From: Eubacteriales bacterium
GTDB lineage: Bacteria > Bacillota > Clostridia > Oscillospirales > QAKW01
Assembly (NCBI GenBank): GCA_045541455.1
Contig: JAZQJA010000032.1
Location: forward strand, 2,831-66,830
DNA: 64,000 nucleotides
Direction of reading: 5' to 3'
A program made the translations under genes and the position numbers. Numbering within the stretch: the first letter of the stretch is position 1; the number at the start of each line of letters is the position of its first letter. Shown in pieces: positions 4,160 to 40,297 of the stretch. Under the pieces are notes generated by a model. It did no database searches. It saw nothing but the letters and a program-made list of their open reading frames with translations, and was not told the DNA's origin.

Positions 4160-5971
4160 ATGAAGTTATTGGACTTTTCCATTTCTAAATTTAATGACAC
4201 CATGCAAGAAGATGTCTCTAAACAAGCGCTGAATTTTTGCAAGGCTGTTATTCTTTCACCAACAAAAATATCCTTGACGCTAAAGCATAGTCCTGAGCAT
4301 ATTCATACGCGGTATGCGGTACTAAATCCGGATTTGTCGGTTGACTATAGAAATGATTTTGCATATTATTACTATGGGGTATCCCCAAAAATTGACAGTT
4401 TTTCTGTTATAGATGCAATTTCTAATCTTACATTTATGACTATTGAAGGGCTTAACACCTATATTTCCGGGCATTGCACTGAATTTATGCTTCACGAAGA
4501 TCAGGCGGAATATTTGCCGGATGTCGCAAAACTGATTTTGCTTACGGTTGCTTCAAAATACGGAATTGAAATCAAGCGATGCGATGAGTTAAACTTCTTA
4601 ACTGATGCTGACAGTGCCTTTTCTGCAATAGTCTCCCGTGATAAAACGGAAGACACTTTTCTTTTTCACGGTTGTCCTTGTCCGGAACTTATAGAACGGC
4701 TAAAGCCATACCGATTTATTAACCATAACGATGTTTGGCAAATAGATGATAACGGCATCGGTTTGCAGGAAATTTATGCCGATAAGGCAAATATAAAACT
4801 TCTGGTTGGAAAAGTTTTTTATTCCGGTGTACTTTTGAAAGCGCTTGAAATTAACAAGCAAAAATATAATTTTGAAAACAGCGGTATCTCCAATTATCAG
4901 CTCATCTACGAACGCAGTTCATTTGCAATGGTTTGCGCATTGGATGATAATTATGTAGGTCACCCCCTGCTTAAAGAAAGCCGTTCAAAGTTGGAGAAGT
5001 TTTTCCGTTATGATGACGATTGTAAACAGCTCTTGTCCAAGCAACTCTCATCCGACTGCCTTGATGACGAGCAAATTTTAGCCTACGTTAACGAATATAT
5101 GAAAAGCAGTTATAATGTAAACCAAATCGGAGTTTCCAGCAATATCAAAACGCCCAAAGGAGAAATCTTATTTGGCTTACGCGCTTCTAAAAATATTGAC
5201 GACGGGTCCCTTTATCCAAGTGTGAATGGCAATGCCGAAGTTTACGATGAGGACGTTCAATTTTACAACAACTCTGTTTATGAAGATTTGCCGACTGTCC
5301 ATATACATAAAAAGCGAAGTGATCTATTGGGCGAAATTGCCCGAGAGGCTTACGGCGAACTTAATATTACTTCTACCAAGGAATCTTGGTCTTGCCACGG
5401 AATGATCATTTCCGGCAACCTACCTAAAGACAATTGTTCAAACAGACGATGCCACTTTAACATTCTTTTTGAAAACGAGATTGATGAAACGCTCGACGAA
5501 ATAAAAATGCGCTATCGCAAAGCCAGTGAAGCGTTTGAAAATAAAAATTTTGCTGCGATAATCATAAAATATTATAAAACCAGAGTTCATGGCTTATTTG
5601 GCGACATAGTACGCTTTCTTCAGCAAATTCTTCAAAGTAAAGATTTTATTGAATCTATTTTGCTTCTTTTGGTTGCTTTTATCAGCATAAAAACCATTGA
5701 TTTTTCCTTTGAAAATATTTCTTCACTTCTTTCTATTCTGTTTGCAAGCATTATTTTGCTTACAACCATTTTAAAGATTATTCAACATACCGTAAAAATG
5801 TTTCGAAATGCGAAAAGTACCAAAAGAATTTGTGTCTACGGAAGTATGTCATACACTTCTCTTTGCCGCAAAATTTCGAAAGTTATGAAAATGAAATATC
5901 ATCCTGCCGCCTATGCTTCTTTTAAGATGCACATTGAAAATCTGGTCTATAACGATTTGCAGGATAAATAA
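4160..5971 (+). CDS. Orphan 603-aa protein: large soluble N-terminal region plus two C-terminal TM helices
   Basis: Long uninterrupted ORF with RBS AAGGCGGA 7 nt before the ATG. Hydrophobic segments FIESILLLLVAFISIKTI and LLSILFASIILLTTILKII lie near the C-terminus, followed by a basic tail. No family recognised. Confidence 0.6.
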   Translation: MKLLDFSISKFNDTMQEDVSKQALNFCKAVILSPTKISLTLKHSPEHIHTRYAVLNPDLSVDYRNDFAYYYYGVSPKIDSFSVIDAISNLTFMTIEGLNTYISGHCTEFMLHEDQAEYLPDVAKLILLTVASKYGIEIKRCDELNFLTDADSAFSAIVSRDKTEDTFLFHGCPCPELIERLKPYRFINHNDVWQIDDNGIGLQEIYADKANIKLLVGKVFYSGVLLKALEINKQKYNFENSGISNYQLIYERSSFAMVCALDDNYVGHPLLKESRSKLEKFFRYDDDCKQLLSKQLSSDCLDDEQILAYVNEYMKSSYNVNQIGVSSNIKTPKGEILFGLRASKNIDDGSLYPSVNGNAEVYDEDVQFYNNSVYEDLPTVHIHKKRSDLLGEIAREAYGELNITSTKESWSCHGMIISGNLPKDNCSNRRCHFNILFENEIDETLDEIKMRYRKASEAFENKNFAAIIIKYYKTRVHGLFGDIVRFLQQILQSKDFIESILLLLVAFISIKTIDFSFENISSLLSILFASIILLTTILKIIQHTVKMFRNAKSTKRICVYGSMSYTSLCRKISKVMKMKYHPAAYASFKMHIENLVYNDLQDK

Positions 5972-6000
5972 AAAGCGTGGTGAAATTCACCTCGCTTTTT
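5971..6000. terminator. Bidirectional terminator between convergent genes
   Basis: aaaagcgtggtga / tcacctcgctttt stem with one mismatch, flanked by A- and T-runs. Sits between the stops at 5971 and 6036. Confidence 0.6.
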
Positions 6001-6035: not shown

Positions 6036-6719
6036 TTAAAGCACATCTTTCACGGCGATAATGAAAGTAGCGGTGCCGTTGTAAGTGCCTGCATACTGAA
6101 TTTTGCTTTCGTCAACGGCAAAGGTAATGCTGACATTACCGCTAGCGGCGGTTTCGGGGTTAACTGCAAGTATCTCACCGCCTGCGGCAACAGTTTCGCC
6201 GTTTGCTTTAACGGTGTAGTCAAGGGTTATATCCTCACCGCATGTTATGGCGAAATTATTATTGGCAGCAAGGCAAACGGATACATACTTGCCCTTGTTT
6301 ACAACAACATTTTCCGCCGAAACGGTAACTGCATTGCCGTCAATAGTTACATTTTCAGGAATGGTTACGGTGTAGGTGGGTGCGACAACGTACTCTAAAA
6401 CTGCCGATTCATTAGTATATTTAAGTTCTAAATTAAGTGTGGAGTCTTTTTGGATACTGTAATCTTGCAAGGAATTCCCATCCTCTAAGATTTTACCCGC
6501 AAAAATAAGCTTTTGTTGGTCAGGCGGGATGCCCTCTTTGTCTTGTATTTTGGCTTTAACATCCTCAATGCGATCTGTCGGTTCAACTTCAATGGTAATG
6601 TGTTTTCCTGCAAGTGTTTTGACAAAAATCTGCATAGCGTTTGCCGTTGTTATTATAGATAAAATAAGGCAAACAGAAAGTGCTATCATAAAAAATCGTT
6701 TTATCATTTTTTTGTTCAT
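6036..6719 (-). CDS. Secreted protein: Sec signal peptide + eukaryote-like ubiquitin domain (no GG tail) + beta-rich C-terminal domain
   Basis: RBS AAAGGAG upstream of the ATG at 6719. Signal peptide [28 protein letters not shown]. This is immediately followed by [71 protein letters not shown] (nt 6423-6635). By hand alignment that matches canonical ubiquitin at 56 of its first 71 residues without gaps. Confidence 0.85.
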
Positions 6720-6753
6720 TATCCTGACTCCTTTACTATCACTATAGTTAATA

Positions 6754-6781
6754 CGAGTAAAACGTACATTAAATCAAATAT
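6754..6781. repeat. 28-nt intergenic box, copy 1 (cgagtaaaacgtacattaaatcaaatat)
   Basis: Matches 49257-49284 at 27 of 28 positions. A partial copy (ggacattaaatcaaatat) lies at 49301-49318. Sits 34 nt upstream of the ubiquitin-like gene start. Confidence 0.8.
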
Positions 6782-6805
6782 CTCGGGTTAAATGTTGCAC
6801 ATTTT

Positions 6806-7786
6806 TTAAACTGTTAAAACTACTTTTCCAACATTTTGGCCTTTATAAAGAATGTCTTGTGCTGCTTGGGCTTCGGTTATGGGTAAAACCTTGTAGATAG
6901 TCGGTTTCACTTGTCCGCTTTCCACTTTAGGCCATACATTTTTCACAAGTTCTGCTAAAATTTGCGCTTTCACCTGCGGTGTTCTTGAACGCAATGTTGA
7001 ACCTATAATTCTTACGTTTCTTACATAAATATTTTTAAGGTCAATTTCGGTTTTTGTGCCGGCTAAAGCGGCAATCATAATCCAACGTGCACCGTGCCTT
7101 AAATAATGAATGCATTTTCCCATTATTTCTCCGCCCAGACAGTCAATGGCAACATCAACGGGGTGCCCGTTTTCAAGTTCTTCTTTCAAAACTTCTGCTA
7201 TATCTTCTTTTGTTGTAACAATAACCCTGTCGGCATTTAAATGCTTAATACTATTAGCAATTTCATCAGTTAAAACAGTAGTAATTACTCTTATACCAAA
7301 GGCTTTAGCCATAGGAATAATTACAGAAGCCAATCCGCTTGCACCCGCATTCATTAAAAGGGTGTCGCCCTCTTTAATGTTTCCTTCAATAAATAGATTA
7401 AGATAGGCGGTTGCAAAAGCTTCGGGGATAGCCGCAGCCTCTACCATTGTGCAGTTGTTAGGCACAGGCATTAACATATCGTATTTAACATTAGCGTATT
7501 CTGCATAACCGCCGCCACCCAAAAGGGCACATACCTTGTCGCCGATTTTCCAGTTCGACTTTTCTTTAGCACCGTCTGCAATTTCAACAATAGTACCCGC
7601 AATCTCCAGTCCCATCCATTCAGGACAGCCTTCAGGTGGGGGATAATCACCCTCTCTTTGCATTAAATCGGCACGGTTAATGGCTGCCGCCTCAATTTTT
7701 ATAAGACAGTCGTCATTTTGCAAAATGGGGTCGGGAACGTTGTCCCATCTTAAAGATTTATCATTGTTTACAAGTATCGCTTTCAT
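6806..7786 (-). CDS. NAD(P)H:quinone oxidoreductase-like MDR family protein
   Basis: 326 aa with AINRADLMQREGDYPPP and a GASGLAS nucleotide-binding loop. The C-terminal GKVVL is typical of the Qor/PIG3 group. Confidence 0.8.
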   Translation of the reverse strand: MKAILVNNDKSLRWDNVPDPILQNDDCLIKIEAAAINRADLMQREGDYPPPEGCPEWMGLEIAGTIVEIADGAKEKSNWKIGDKVCALLGGGGYAEYANVKYDMLMPVPNNCTMVEAAAIPEAFATAYLNLFIEGNIKEGDTLLMNAGASGLASVIIPMAKAFGIRVITTVLTDEIANSIKHLNADRVIVTTKEDIAEVLKEELENGHPVDVAIDCLGGEIMGKCIHYLRHGARWIMIAALAGTKTEIDLKNIYVRNVRIIGSTLRSRTPQVKAQILAELVKNVWPKVESGQVKPTIYKVLPITEAQAAQDILYKGQNVGKVVLTV

Positions 7787-38332: not shown

Positions 38333-40297
38333 ATGAAACTTGCAAAAAGCTTACTTTCTGCTTTAATCATTGTTATTTTAAGTTGCACCATGTGTGTTTC
38401 TACATTTGCGGCTTATAACGATGTTGCTGCAGACAACGAAAACCTTAAGGCTATCGAATTTGTCGATAAACTCGGTGTTATTCCAAGTACTTGGAATGGT
38501 GATTTTAAACCCGACCAGTACCTTACACGTGCCGATGCACTTATGGCTGTTTACAGAACGCTTTACGGCAGTGATATTAACAAAGCTGAATATGAAGAAG
38601 CTGCAAACGCTATTGAATACATAGAATCGGGTGAAACGGGCGACGTTTCTGCTACTGCAGCACTTCGTTATTATATAGCATGGGGTATTGATAATTATAT
38701 TGTGGCATCGTCTACAGAAAACTCAATGTTCCGTCCTTCAGAGCCTGTTACGGCAAACGAACTTTCTGCTTTGCTTGCAAAAATTCTTCGTCTTGTAGAA
38801 GATGAAAACGCACAGTTCCCTGACGGTTATACCGATCTTGTTTCTGAACTTATGGGTTCTGTAGAGGCTGGTGAAGACCCCGTTACAAGAGAACAGGCAG
38901 CTGTTATTTTCACAAACGCTATTACATCTGTTGAGGGCACTCCCGGTGAACTCGGTGTTTACACCGACTTTGACGGTGCTCCTCTCGATTCACTTGCAGT
39001 AAATGTATTCTGTATGGATACAGTTGACCTTGTAATCCGTGCAACTACAACAAGAAATCTTGGTTACAACGTTAAAAACGGTACACTTCTTTCAAACGGT
39101 GCCGACATCGACTTGGGCTCTGACTTCTCTGATTATATCGGCTACGGTATCTCACTTACATACCGTGATTCAGATGCTTCGGGTACATACACCGAGGATG
39201 AGGAAGTTTTGACATACTCAATCAGTTCAACCAAAACAGTAACCGTTCCCGCTTCAAGCCTTAAAATTTCATCAGGTAGTTCAATTGCTGTTGAATCCGA
39301 ATCGGGCACATTAAACTTAGGTTCGTCAACATATATGTATCTAAACGATAATCCTTGGCCTTTAAATGACGACAAGTACGATCTTATTAAACTTGTTACA
39401 TCAATTGGTGTTGACACAACAATCGAATCGCGCGACGGTTTCTTGTTTAAATGTATGCAGGCTACATCAACAGATACAGTTTATGCAACAGTATTTGCAA
39501 CAGAGTCAAAACCCGGTAAAGTTGTTGGTATTAACAATGGTTATTACACAATTTTAGACTATTACTATGCAGGTTCTGACAATGAATACAGAACTTATAA
39601 TGTTCTTGATTGTAAATTTGGCACAACCGTTAAGGTTGGTGATTATGTAAGTTTCTACGAAAGCGGAGATAAAGTATATATCAATCCCGGTAACACTCTT
39701 ACAGCCGGTGTTAAAGAAACAAAAGTTGATAAATATACAGGTGTGTTCTCCATTGTATTTGACAATGATGTTTCAGGTTTCAAACATGCTTTCTATGTAG
39801 AAGGTGATACACCTATCGTTGCAAACAAAAAAGGTGAAGGCGAGAAATACAACTTTATTATGGATGACACAGGTGATAACTATGTTATTACTTGGGAAGC
39901 AATAAAAACAAACTACAAAACATTAGAAATTACAGAACTTACTGATGATGCTGCAAAATCAAGCATTACCGTTAAGGCTGTTGACCTTGCTACAGGCAAA
40001 GAAGTAAAGGCATTTACTGTTAAATATGACAACATCAACGCACCTACAGCATTAAAGGTCGGTGACATTGTTAACTACAGCGACAACGGTGCCGAAACTC
40101 CCAAAGCATATCTTGAAAAGAGAGCTACTATAACAGTTCAGGTTATGGATATGGGTGATCATATAATAGATATGAACACAAATAAAGTTTATTACAAGAG
40201 CCAGTATATTAAAGACGGCGGTGTTTTAGAGTCGGGCTTTACATATAAACTTACTCTTGATATGGCAAACTGTGTTGTAACTGCTGAAAAACTTTAA
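38333..40297 (+). CDS. Secreted SLH-domain cell-wall-associated protein
   Basis: Signal peptide ending FAAY. N-terminal SLH-like repeats (FVDKLGVIPSTWNGDFKPDQYLTRADALMAVYR; FRPSEPVTANELSALLAKI; VTREQAAVIFTNAI). The roughly 450-aa C-terminal region is unassigned. Confidence 0.7.
   Translation: MKLAKSLLSALIIVILSCTMCVSTFAAYNDVAADNENLKAIEFVDKLGVIPSTWNGDFKPDQYLTRADALMAVYRTLYGSDINKAEYEEAANAIEYIESGETGDVSATAALRYYIAWGIDNYIVASSTENSMFRPSEPVTANELSALLAKILRLVEDENAQFPDGYTDLVSELMGSVEAGEDPVTREQAAVIFTNAITSVEGTPGELGVYTDFDGAPLDSLAVNVFCMDTVDLVIRATTTRNLGYNVKNGTLLSNGADIDLGSDFSDYIGYGISLTYRDSDASGTYTEDEEVLTYSISSTKTVTVPASSLKISSGSSIAVESESGTLNLGSSTYMYLNDNPWPLNDDKYDLIKLVTSIGVDTTIESRDGFLFKCMQATSTDTVYATVFATESKPGKVVGINNGYYTILDYYYAGSDNEYRTYNVLDCKFGTTVKVGDYVSFYESGDKVYINPGNTLTAGVKETKVDKYTGVFSIVFDNDVSGFKHAFYVEGDTPIVANKKGEGEKYNFIMDDTGDNYVITWEAIKTNYKTLEITELTDDAAKSSITVKAVDLATGKEVKAFTVKYDNINAPTALKVGDIVNYSDNGAETPKAYLEKRATITVQVMDMGDHIIDMNTNKVYYKSQYIKDGGVLESGFTYKLTLDMANCVVTAEKL

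Follow-up and report, generated by a model that had tools for sequence, protein, structure and literature searches.

A trichomonad-type ubiquitin domain fused to a predicted pilin-like module in a putatively exported protein of gut Clostridia

A 64,000-nucleotide stretch of DNA from a Eubacteriales bacterium (assembly GCA_045541455.1, contig JAZQJA010000032.1, positions 2,831 to 66,830; hereafter the window) carries a complete gene of 227 codons plus stop at 6036..6719 on the minus strand. Its product is composed of a signal peptide, a ubiquitin domain, a linker and a pilin-like beta domain. Ubiquitin is the archetypal eukaryote-only protein, and to our knowledge BfUbb of Bacteroides is the only bacterial copy of eukaryotic ubiquitin that has been studied so far. 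On balance, we consider the protein to be probably a Sec-exported subunit of a surface fibre or complex, which would carry a non-conjugatable, trichomonad-derived ubiquitin as the head on a pilin-like module.

Ubiquitin domain and predicted export

The ubiquitin domain comprises residues 29-100 (6420..6635, minus strand). Pfam matched PF00240 to residues 31-100 with an E-value of 3.9e-26 and a score of 91.1 bits, well above the cut-off of 25.4 bits. A BLASTP alignment with human ubiquitin over residues 29-100 contained 56 identities (78%) and 65 positives in 72 positions without gaps. A preliminary description of this locus, made from the sequence, had counted 56 identities in the first 71 positions by hand, again without gaps; the two counts are equal since position 72 is changed from Arg to Lys. 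The alignment also confirmed its statements that all seven lysines (K6, K11, K27, K29, K33, K48, and K63), L8, and I44 are retained and that H68 and V70 are replaced by Asn and Glu, respectively. In a model of the full-length protein, the ubiquitin part had a predicted local distance difference test (pLDDT) score of ~90.

Residues 72-76 of the domain are KYTNE in place of RLRGG, and the chain runs on into the beta domain. Because the Gly-Gly tail is missing and the domain is expected to be extracellular, the window ubiquitin is predicted not to be conjugatable, as the preliminary description had concluded for the normal E1 route. No E1-, E2- or E3-like genes were found in the neighbourhood of the gene or in the gene annotation of the window. 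The L8-I44-H68-V70 hydrophobic patch is the surface used by most ubiquitin-binding domains (UBDs). This patch is not intact in the window copy, in which L8 and I44 are accompanied by H68N and V70E. The domain is thus a member of the ubiquitin family, yet it lacks the functional hallmarks of ubiquitin: it has no Gly-Gly tail, its I44 patch is disrupted, and it is not expected in the cytosol.

Residues 1-28 (6636..6719, minus strand) constitute a predicted Sec-type signal peptide with four Lys or Arg residues among the first eight, followed by a 17-residue hydrophobic stretch; residues 3-21 are helical in the full-length model. The putative signal peptidase I site lies between ANA and MQIF, so that A-N-A directly precedes Met1 of ubiquitin. 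The signal peptide is alignable with those of 54 members of the family described below, and the AxA site abuts the ubiquitin Met1 in 12 of 12 ubiquitin fusions examined. These features bear out the Sec signal peptide with an AxA context proposed earlier, as a prediction, and they indicate that the protein is exported. Signal peptidase would cut at this site, and the mature protein would begin at the ubiquitin Met1.

Origin of the ubiquitin domain

A homology search with the full-length protein was dominated by eukaryotic polyubiquitins, which were cut into 76-residue units for comparison. The best-matching unit by far was ubiquitin of Tritrichomonas foetus, and the same unit was present on two metagenomic contigs. 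This unit differs from canonical ubiquitin at eight positions (H12, T20, R22, D25, N54, Q57, S60, and D64), and the window copy shares all eight residues. The window domain is identical to the T. foetus unit at 64 of 72 positions (89%), as against 56 of 72 for human ubiquitin, and the corresponding values for a related fusion (L009) are 70 and 62. Among single-ubiquitin chains in the PDB, the top match to the window copy was 5xy3_m, the ubiquitin-L40 protein of the Trichomonas vaginalis ribosome (143.5 bits, compared with 126 bits for human ubiquitin). The eight shared derived residues, the identity to T. foetus and the PDB ranking together point to a parabasalid (trichomonad) as the donor lineage of the window ubiquitin. 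The earlier proposal of acquisition from a eukaryote is therefore upheld and narrowed to the parabasalids by the eight derived residues.

The window copy differs from parabasalid ubiquitin in being a single unit rather than a polyubiquitin or a ribosomal fusion, in the loss of residues 72-76, in its predicted export and in the additional changes T9A, L15I, R42K, Q49I, T55S, H68N, and V70E. A recent transfer from the sampled trichomonads was considered and rejected, as the nucleotide identity to the polyubiquitin genes of T. foetus and of a metagenomic trichomonad is 0.66-0.75 and synonymous sites are saturated.

Structure prediction of the beta domain

The C-terminal domain of ~125 residues was modelled separately (residues 100-227, built on 48 sequences), as the preliminary description had recommended. 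The resulting model had a pLDDT of 94.2 and a predicted template modelling (pTM) score of 0.83. The top ~30 Foldseek matches in the PDB were almost exclusively pilins of chaperone-usher (CU) systems or pilin domains of adhesins, including CfaB, CS17, CsuE, PapE, the PapG pilin domain, PapA, FimG, FimA, CooA, and Caf1, with probabilities of ~1.0, TM-scores of 0.53-0.59, and a best E-value of 6.6e-4. At the level of the predicted fold, the domain is a truncated immunoglobulin (Ig) domain resembling CU pilins. A TasA/camelysin-type or a cohesin-type identity was also considered and was rejected because neither type was among the fold or sequence matches. The beta domain gave no match above threshold in Pfam or NCBIfam or in a profile search against PDB sequences. 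Scattered sub-threshold matches were to SCPU (4 of 32 members) and DUF4402 (6 of 32), and also to MrpH_C and StkG.

The two domains are not packed together in the full-length model (pTM 0.45). Residues 103-115, which link them, have pLDDT values below 50 in this model of the monomer and form a coil when the beta domain is modelled alone. Across the family, conservation is highest in two blocks, one comprising the linker and first strand (PxYTVTIP) and the other the last strand (YAGxYxGTxTF). In the window protein, the conserved linker and first strand correspond to residues 104-121 (6357..6410, minus strand), and the core of the pilin-like Ig-fold domain, which ends in the conserved strand, to residues 122-227 (6039..6356, minus strand). 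The monomer models thus leave a conserved amphipathic linker unincorporated, and by analogy with donor-strand pilins, we infer that it is a candidate donor strand.

Family distribution and operon organization

Searches for relatives were seeded with the C-terminal 128 residues alone. They retrieved signal-peptide proteins of ~155 residues, versions with C-terminal extensions, and versions with ubiquitin after the signal peptide. Among GTDB species representatives, 35 loci were found, all in metagenome-assembled genomes (MAGs) of Clostridia from animal and human guts, with names including Faecousia, Acutalibacteraceae, Oscillospiraceae, Ruminococcus, 'Eubacterium', and Lachnospiraceae. The hosts from which gut MAGs with family members were obtained include humans, ruminants, and birds. 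A fusion of signal peptide, ubiquitin, and beta domain is encoded at 11 of the 35 loci, each in a different species representative, which answers the earlier suggestion to survey related genomes. Ubiquitin is carried by 78 of 237 collected family proteins. A profile search gave 1,910 proteins at 90% clustering, with PF00240 present in about half of the top 120, and an exhaustive hidden Markov model (HMM) search gave 1,453 clusters (50% identity, E<=1e-10). A few of the ubiquitin-bearing members are labelled 'ubiquitin-like protein' at NCBI. No description of ubiquitin fusions in Firmicutes was found in the literature, and no relative of the family was found in a scan of viral contigs (IMG/VR).

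In the HMM search, the beta domain nearly always either closed a larger protein at its very C-terminus or immediately followed the signal peptide. The N-terminal heads that it carries are ubiquitin, GLUG repeats, Listeria-Bacteroides repeats, and others, or there is none. The beta domain is thus the constant, family-defining module to which alternative heads are attached. This corrects the preliminary description in two respects. It had regarded the C-terminal domain as an extra one and BfUbb as the sole known precedent; the domain defines the family and has a CU-pilin-like predicted fold, and dozens of homologous ubiquitin fusions are present in databases within a large Oscillospirales family.

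In relatives, the beta-domain genes are arranged in operons. A typical operon starts with a LytTR response regulator, a GHKL kinase, a protein that we call TM180, and a giant beta-domain protein with GLUG or Listeria-Bacteroides repeats; the ubiquitin fusion, two to four short beta-domain proteins, and a protein that we call N280 follow. TM180 (~180 residues; 19 of 36 loci) combines a membrane helix at its N-terminus with a beta domain of ~110 residues and contains a conserved LNWNNWFG motif. N280 (~283 residues; 25 of 36 loci) is predicted to be secreted, contains a CarboxypepD_reg/SpaA-like (prealbumin-like) domain, and carries a C-terminal sortase sorting signal in which (S/T/P)PQTG is followed by a hydrophobic segment and a basic tail. 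From their positions, TM180 and N280 are candidates for a membrane-anchored chaperone and an anchoring terminator, respectively. Neither usher nor PapD-like chaperone genes were found in the operons examined. No sortase gene was found beside them; the flanking open reading frames (ORFs) encode an IS200 transposase, VanZ, TspO, and BspA-type leucine-rich repeat (LRR) proteins. Taken by itself, the operon seems to represent a Gram-positive surface-fibre system that has not been described.

Several further features of the family and its loci were observed. The operon was seen in L008, L010, L013, L018, L043, and other loci (e.g. L043:2712-11314). BspA-type LRR surface proteins (PF13306), one of more than 2,300 residues, flank several operons (L010:11179-12612, L019:5016-7682, and L043:1-2127). 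In a Faecousia MAG, an IS200-like transposase gene lies directly downstream of the operon (L008:9233-9814) and is the sole mobile-element gene seen beside any locus. A further recurrent head is a domain of ~110 residues with a DSxGDGW motif and no Pfam match (L017:7602-8666, L018:7605-8666, and L023:2773-3594). Many short members have a C-terminal extension of ~65 residues (INFTxDGTxYQAEEGMT...). The beta-domain profile matches 31 separate stretches of P0315 (2,195 residues), which suggests a long tandem array of partial or complete beta-domain copies.

Repeated capture and selection

The trichomonad signature was found in 65 of the 77 collected ubiquitin domains. Other types occur in the same position. 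P0298 and its relatives carry N20/S22/D24/A25/K54, and the best match of P0298 was 4gsw, the ubiquitin of Entamoeba histolytica (149.8 bits, compared with 137 bits for human ubiquitin); its gene is one of several paralogues that lie clustered on independent contigs of two samples. P0269, P0222, and L016 carry yet other ubiquitin signatures. The ubiquitin of L019 is identical to human ubiquitin at 72 of 76 positions. It is the only relative in which LRLRGG is retained, here as an internal segment followed in frame by the beta domain. In this Oscillospiraceae MAG (L019:995-1696), LRLRGG stands immediately before the beta domain; judged from its sequence, the L019 fusion is a potential substrate for deubiquitinase-type cleavage, unlike the window copy.

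Comparison of the two domains between pairs of fusions gave discordant identities. The beta domains of L012 and P0222 are 95% identical, whereas their ubiquitins are of different types and only 49% identical, and for P0247 and P0269 the values are 86% and 68%. The window ubiquitin is closest to that of L009 (90%), yet the beta domains of this pair are 42% identical; the best match to the window beta domain is the one in P0124 (66%). Since near-identical beta backbones carry different ubiquitin types, ubiquitin cassettes of different eukaryotes have been placed in, or exchanged at, one position more than once. A single acquisition of ubiquitin by the family was rejected on the grounds of the Entamoeba-type and other types and of the 95%-identical backbones with different ubiquitins.

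In the Faecousia pair L011 and L015, which have a bacterial-specific insertion of three residues in common, the ratio of nonsynonymous to synonymous substitution rates (dN/dS) of ubiquitin was 0.16. Between the window copy and L009 or L008, the proportion of nonsynonymous differences (pN) was 0.08-0.10 for ubiquitin and ~0.40 for the beta domain with saturated synonymous sites. For L009 the two values were 0.08 and 0.41, and a dN/dS reading of the window-L009 comparison presumes one capture, as synonymous divergence would have accrued partly in protists if the captures were separate. Conservation of ubiquitin within the family is asymmetric, being high in residues 41-71 and variable in the beta1-beta2 hairpin. 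The family-wide weighted frequencies were 0.21 for L8, 0.75 for I44, and 0.82 for V70, and those of exposed conserved positions were 0.92 for D52, 0.95 for T55, 0.96 for Q62, 0.79 for K63, 0.91 for T66, and 0.78 for K48. The substitution patterns indicate purifying selection on ubiquitin.

These data bear on the explanation that ubiquitin is merely a stable, fast-folding, and protease-resistant N-terminal cap or spacer with no specific ligand. The variety of unrelated heads at the same position, or the lack of any, would fit such a role, as would the variability of the beta1-beta2 hairpin including L8, the three-residue insertion in the commonest clade, and the disrupted I44 patch of the window copy. 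A mere spacer would account less well for the repeated capture of ubiquitin from different eukaryotes on near-identical backbones, for the strong conservation of exposed residues in the C-terminal half, and for the several-fold slower evolution of ubiquitin than of the attached beta domain in some pairs. We consider this explanation rather unlikely. Repeated capture combined with strong constraint argues for selection for ubiquitin itself.

Comparison with BfUbb and with known pili

BfUbb is likewise a eukaryote-derived ubiquitin of a gut bacterium with a signal peptide, no terminal Gly-Gly, and no capacity for conjugation. As far as the published description goes, it is 63% identical to human ubiquitin and closest to entomopoxvirus ubiquitin (PMC3352274). 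It is imported by a SusCD transporter of Bacteroides, targets a periplasmic peptidyl-prolyl isomerase (PPIase), and kills competitors (PMC11467351). BfUbb is a free, diffusible toxin of ~76 residues from a Gram-negative bacterium, whereas the window protein is a 227-residue protein of Clostridia that is fused to a pilin-like module and whose family has an operon-encoded anchor and membrane partners. Given the trichomonad type of the window ubiquitin and the entomopoxvirus affinity reported for BfUbb, the two appear to be independent acquisitions, set apart on the basis of that published description. They have different origins, architectures, and host envelopes and probably also act differently.

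The window protein might nevertheless be a diffusible antibacterial toxin like BfUbb, with the beta domain as a receptor-binding or uptake module and ubiquitin as the part that poisons competitors. The precedent of a non-conjugatable, signal-peptide-bearing ubiquitin that kills competitors is itself in favour of such a function, and the window gene is an orphan with no assembly genes nearby whose product has no anchor of its own. However, besides the separate origin, ubiquitin is here one of many interchangeable heads encoded in multi-paralogue operons with a wall anchor, and no immunity gene or toxin-type neighbourhood was seen. The route of SusCD import and a periplasmic PPIase target is not described for monoderms. 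We therefore regard a toxin of this kind as improbable.

Mimicry directed at the animal host is another explanation, in which ubiquitin, displayed or shed, would affect host cells or immunity, for example by taking part in extracellular-ubiquitin signalling or by serving as a cross-reactive antigen. Antibodies against ubiquitin cross-react with BfUbb, for which a role as an autoantigen mimic has been discussed (PMC6194340), signalling roles of extracellular ubiquitin have been reported (reviewed in PMC10892293), and the gut MAGs that encode the family come from humans, ruminants, and birds. The ubiquitin types, on the other hand, match those of protists (trichomonad and Entamoeba) and not of the host, which may merely reflect the donor, and the C-terminal tail is absent. 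Host mimicry appears slightly less probable still than a BfUbb-like toxin.

The C-terminal domain invites comparison with CU pilins and two-domain adhesins (CfaB, CsuE, PapE, PapG, FimG, and FimH-type). The likeness consists of the predicted truncated-Ig fold, a conserved C-terminal strand motif, and, for tip adhesins, the layout of an N-terminal head and a C-terminal pilin domain. The window family differs from them by the lack of sequence-level membership, its monoderm hosts, the absence of chaperone and usher genes, and the presence of several head-bearing paralogues per operon. A parallel in a monoderm is given by the Pam pili of Candidate Phyla Radiation (CPR) bacteria, compared here by description only. 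A Pam pilin consists of an N-terminal domain, a donor-strand linker, and a CU-like truncated Ig domain; assembly is usher-less via membrane-anchored chaperones, and the fibre is anchored by a terminator subunit (bioRxiv 10.64898/2026.03.03.709456). The linker and groove are the most conserved parts of Pam pilins, the operon also encodes single-domain pilins along with the anchoring terminator, and Pam pilins were reported to be exclusive to CPR (bioRxiv 10.64898/2026.03.03.709456). The monoderm host and the plan of head, linker, and CU-like domain are shared with the Clostridia family, in which the linker is likewise among the best-kept parts. In the Clostridia, TM180 as the candidate helper contains a single small beta domain, not two, the candidate anchor N280 carries a sortase signal, and the system is known from genes and models. 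The window protein thus resembles CU and Pam pilins in predicted fold and layout.

Like the loci of sortase-assembled pili in Gram-positive bacteria, these loci encode a protein, N280, in which a prealbumin/CarboxypepD_reg-like domain is combined with an LPXTG-like (SPQTG) signal. Because the ubiquitin-bearing and other beta-domain proteins have neither a sorting signal nor a pilin motif and no sortase gene lies beside the examined operons, covalent polymerization of these subunits by sortase is unlikely.

Proposed role and points against it

The proposal of a fibre subunit is based on the feature-by-feature correspondence of the Clostridia family to the Pam plan. After cleavage of the signal peptide, the beta modules would probably assemble, by analogy, into a surface fibre or complex through donor-strand complementation by the linker, and we infer that ubiquitin, as the head, would then be exposed on the outside of the cell. 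Speculatively, the displayed ubiquitin could serve as a surface for binding or mimicry toward gut eukaryotes (protists or host) or another partner. Protists or the host are suggested as targets because the ubiquitin is protist-derived and Acutalibacteraceae are documented in the literature as living inside parabasalids. The preliminary description had suggested a host-mimicry or interbacterial effector. Its view of a secreted ubiquitin in a Gram-positive bacterium is retained, but a freely diffusing effector is less favoured, since the pilin-like module carries many alternative heads and points to surface display.

Several observations weigh against this proposal. With a best value of 6.6e-4, the Foldseek E-values are modest, Ig-like sandwiches occur widely, and no CU pilin sequence family of Pfam or NCBIfam reaches threshold for the beta domain. 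Residues 11-20 of the beta-only model have a pLDDT of 94, and the low linker pLDDT of the full-length model may be an artefact of alignment depth. Fibre formation and surface retention are extended to the family by analogy. The window protein itself lacks both a wall-binding domain and a sorting signal; inspection of its C-terminus revealed no sorting motif or hydrophobic tail. TM180, N280, and other beta-domain genes are all absent from the 64-kb window. With the gene an orphan and no partner genes in 64 kb, the window copy may act alone as a soluble secreted protein. Binding of classic UBDs via the I44 patch is doubtful for the window copy, given its H68N and V70E substitutions and the variability of L8 across the family. 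The earlier suggestion that the protein may bind ubiquitin receptors is weakened accordingly for this copy. The caveat on dN/dS given above belongs to the same list.

Gene and genomic context

Translation of the ORF at 6036..6719 (minus strand) gives a 227-residue protein with the C-terminus ...IIAVKDVL, exactly the protein quoted in the preliminary description. A ribosome-binding site, AAAGGAG, was read from the sequence 8 nt 5' of the first ATG (6728..6734, minus strand). A terminator scan placed an intrinsic terminator (GGTGAATTTCACC followed by a T-run) 3' of the stop codon at 5969..5991 (minus strand). It is a bidirectional hairpin, detected on both strands, and is common to the convergent gene for a 603-residue protein. 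A promoter scan gave no match to the sigma-70 consensus in the 86-bp upstream spacer (6720-6805), in which a weak candidate, TTGATT-18-TATTAA, was noted by eye at 6777-6748 on the minus strand. With a spacer of this kind, the ubiquitin gene may share a transcript with the quinone oxidoreductase gene that lies upstream (6806-7786).

An identical protein (P0024) and a 98% variant (P0121) are present in the databases, the former at NCBI. Contig context was read from P0121. Assemblies of JGI, ENA, and Logan together yielded at least 24 independent contigs, the longest of 204 kb, on which it has the same flanks. The neighbours on these contigs are genes for a quinone oxidoreductase, a Gfo/Idh/MocA oxidoreductase, the 603-residue protein, and nadABC. 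The rest of the window is ordinary Firmicute chromosome encoding LepA, FtsK/SpoIIIE, RNase Y, an S-layer-homology (SLH) domain protein, an M23/G5/LysM peptidase, and ABC transporters. Scans of the 64 kb for rRNA, tRNA, and Rfam features gave no match. The GC content of the ubiquitin segment is 0.38 and its GC content at third codon positions (GC3) is 0.36, both inside the range of the neighbouring genes, whose GC3 is 0.33-0.43; these unremarkable values rule out a compositional island at the gene.

These data address the explanation that a chimeric assembly or eukaryotic contamination joined a protist ubiquitin read to a bacterial gene, a possibility that the preliminary description had raised. 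Eukaryote-containing samples are always rich in ubiquitin, and metagenome assemblies are the source of most family members. However, the gene and its flanks recur on the contigs mentioned above from several projects and assemblers, in addition to an NCBI genome contig, and lie among Firmicute housekeeping genes. The ubiquitin is fused in frame with a bacterial signal peptide and has a bacterial ribosome-binding site and terminator, its composition and GC3 are host-like, dozens of diverged homologues are under purifying selection, and the nucleotide identity to trichomonad ubiquitin genes is low with saturated synonymous sites. Chimerism or contamination is effectively excluded, with a negligible residual probability.

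Two other genes of the window were noted. The 603-residue protein (4160-5971, plus strand) belongs to no Pfam or NCBIfam family and has hydrophobic C-terminal segments. Its gene accompanies the ubiquitin gene on every contig of the species and was not found beside the ubiquitin fusions of other species. A 654-residue protein (38333-40297, plus strand) has an N-terminal SLH domain and otherwise no recognized domains, which indicates an SLH-anchored cell-surface layer in this organism.

Biological implications

The window protein and its relatives constitute a second, independent, and much larger case of eukaryotic ubiquitin in bacteria, found in Gram-positive gut bacteria and with an identifiable donor. 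Recurrent capture into one slot strongly suggests that ubiquitin itself is being selected for outside the cell. The analysis also exposed an unannotated family of ~1,450 clusters with a CU-pilin fold, as predicted, in monoderms, and the operons suggest an uncharacterized surface-fibre system. Such a system could explain the adherence of abundant, uncultured Oscillospirales to particles, protists, and the host. A surface-displayed, near-native ubiquitin would also be relevant to hypotheses of antigenic mimicry. The questions that are opened concern the partner of extracellular ubiquitin, the association of bacteria and protists in the gut as a driver of gene flow, and usher-less donor-strand pili in Firmicutes. 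As a broader and more tentative idea, which we think has a minor though appreciable chance of being correct, Oscillospirales may repeatedly have captured the ubiquitin of cohabiting protists, among them trichomonads and Entamoeba, as the head of an unrecognized, usher-independent donor-strand pilus, whose ubiquitin-decorated fibres would serve attachment to these protists or the host, uptake by them, or survival within them. If this is true, ubiquitin would be used extracellularly and non-enzymatically, as an adhesin or a mimic, and the pilus would represent a new Gram-positive class.

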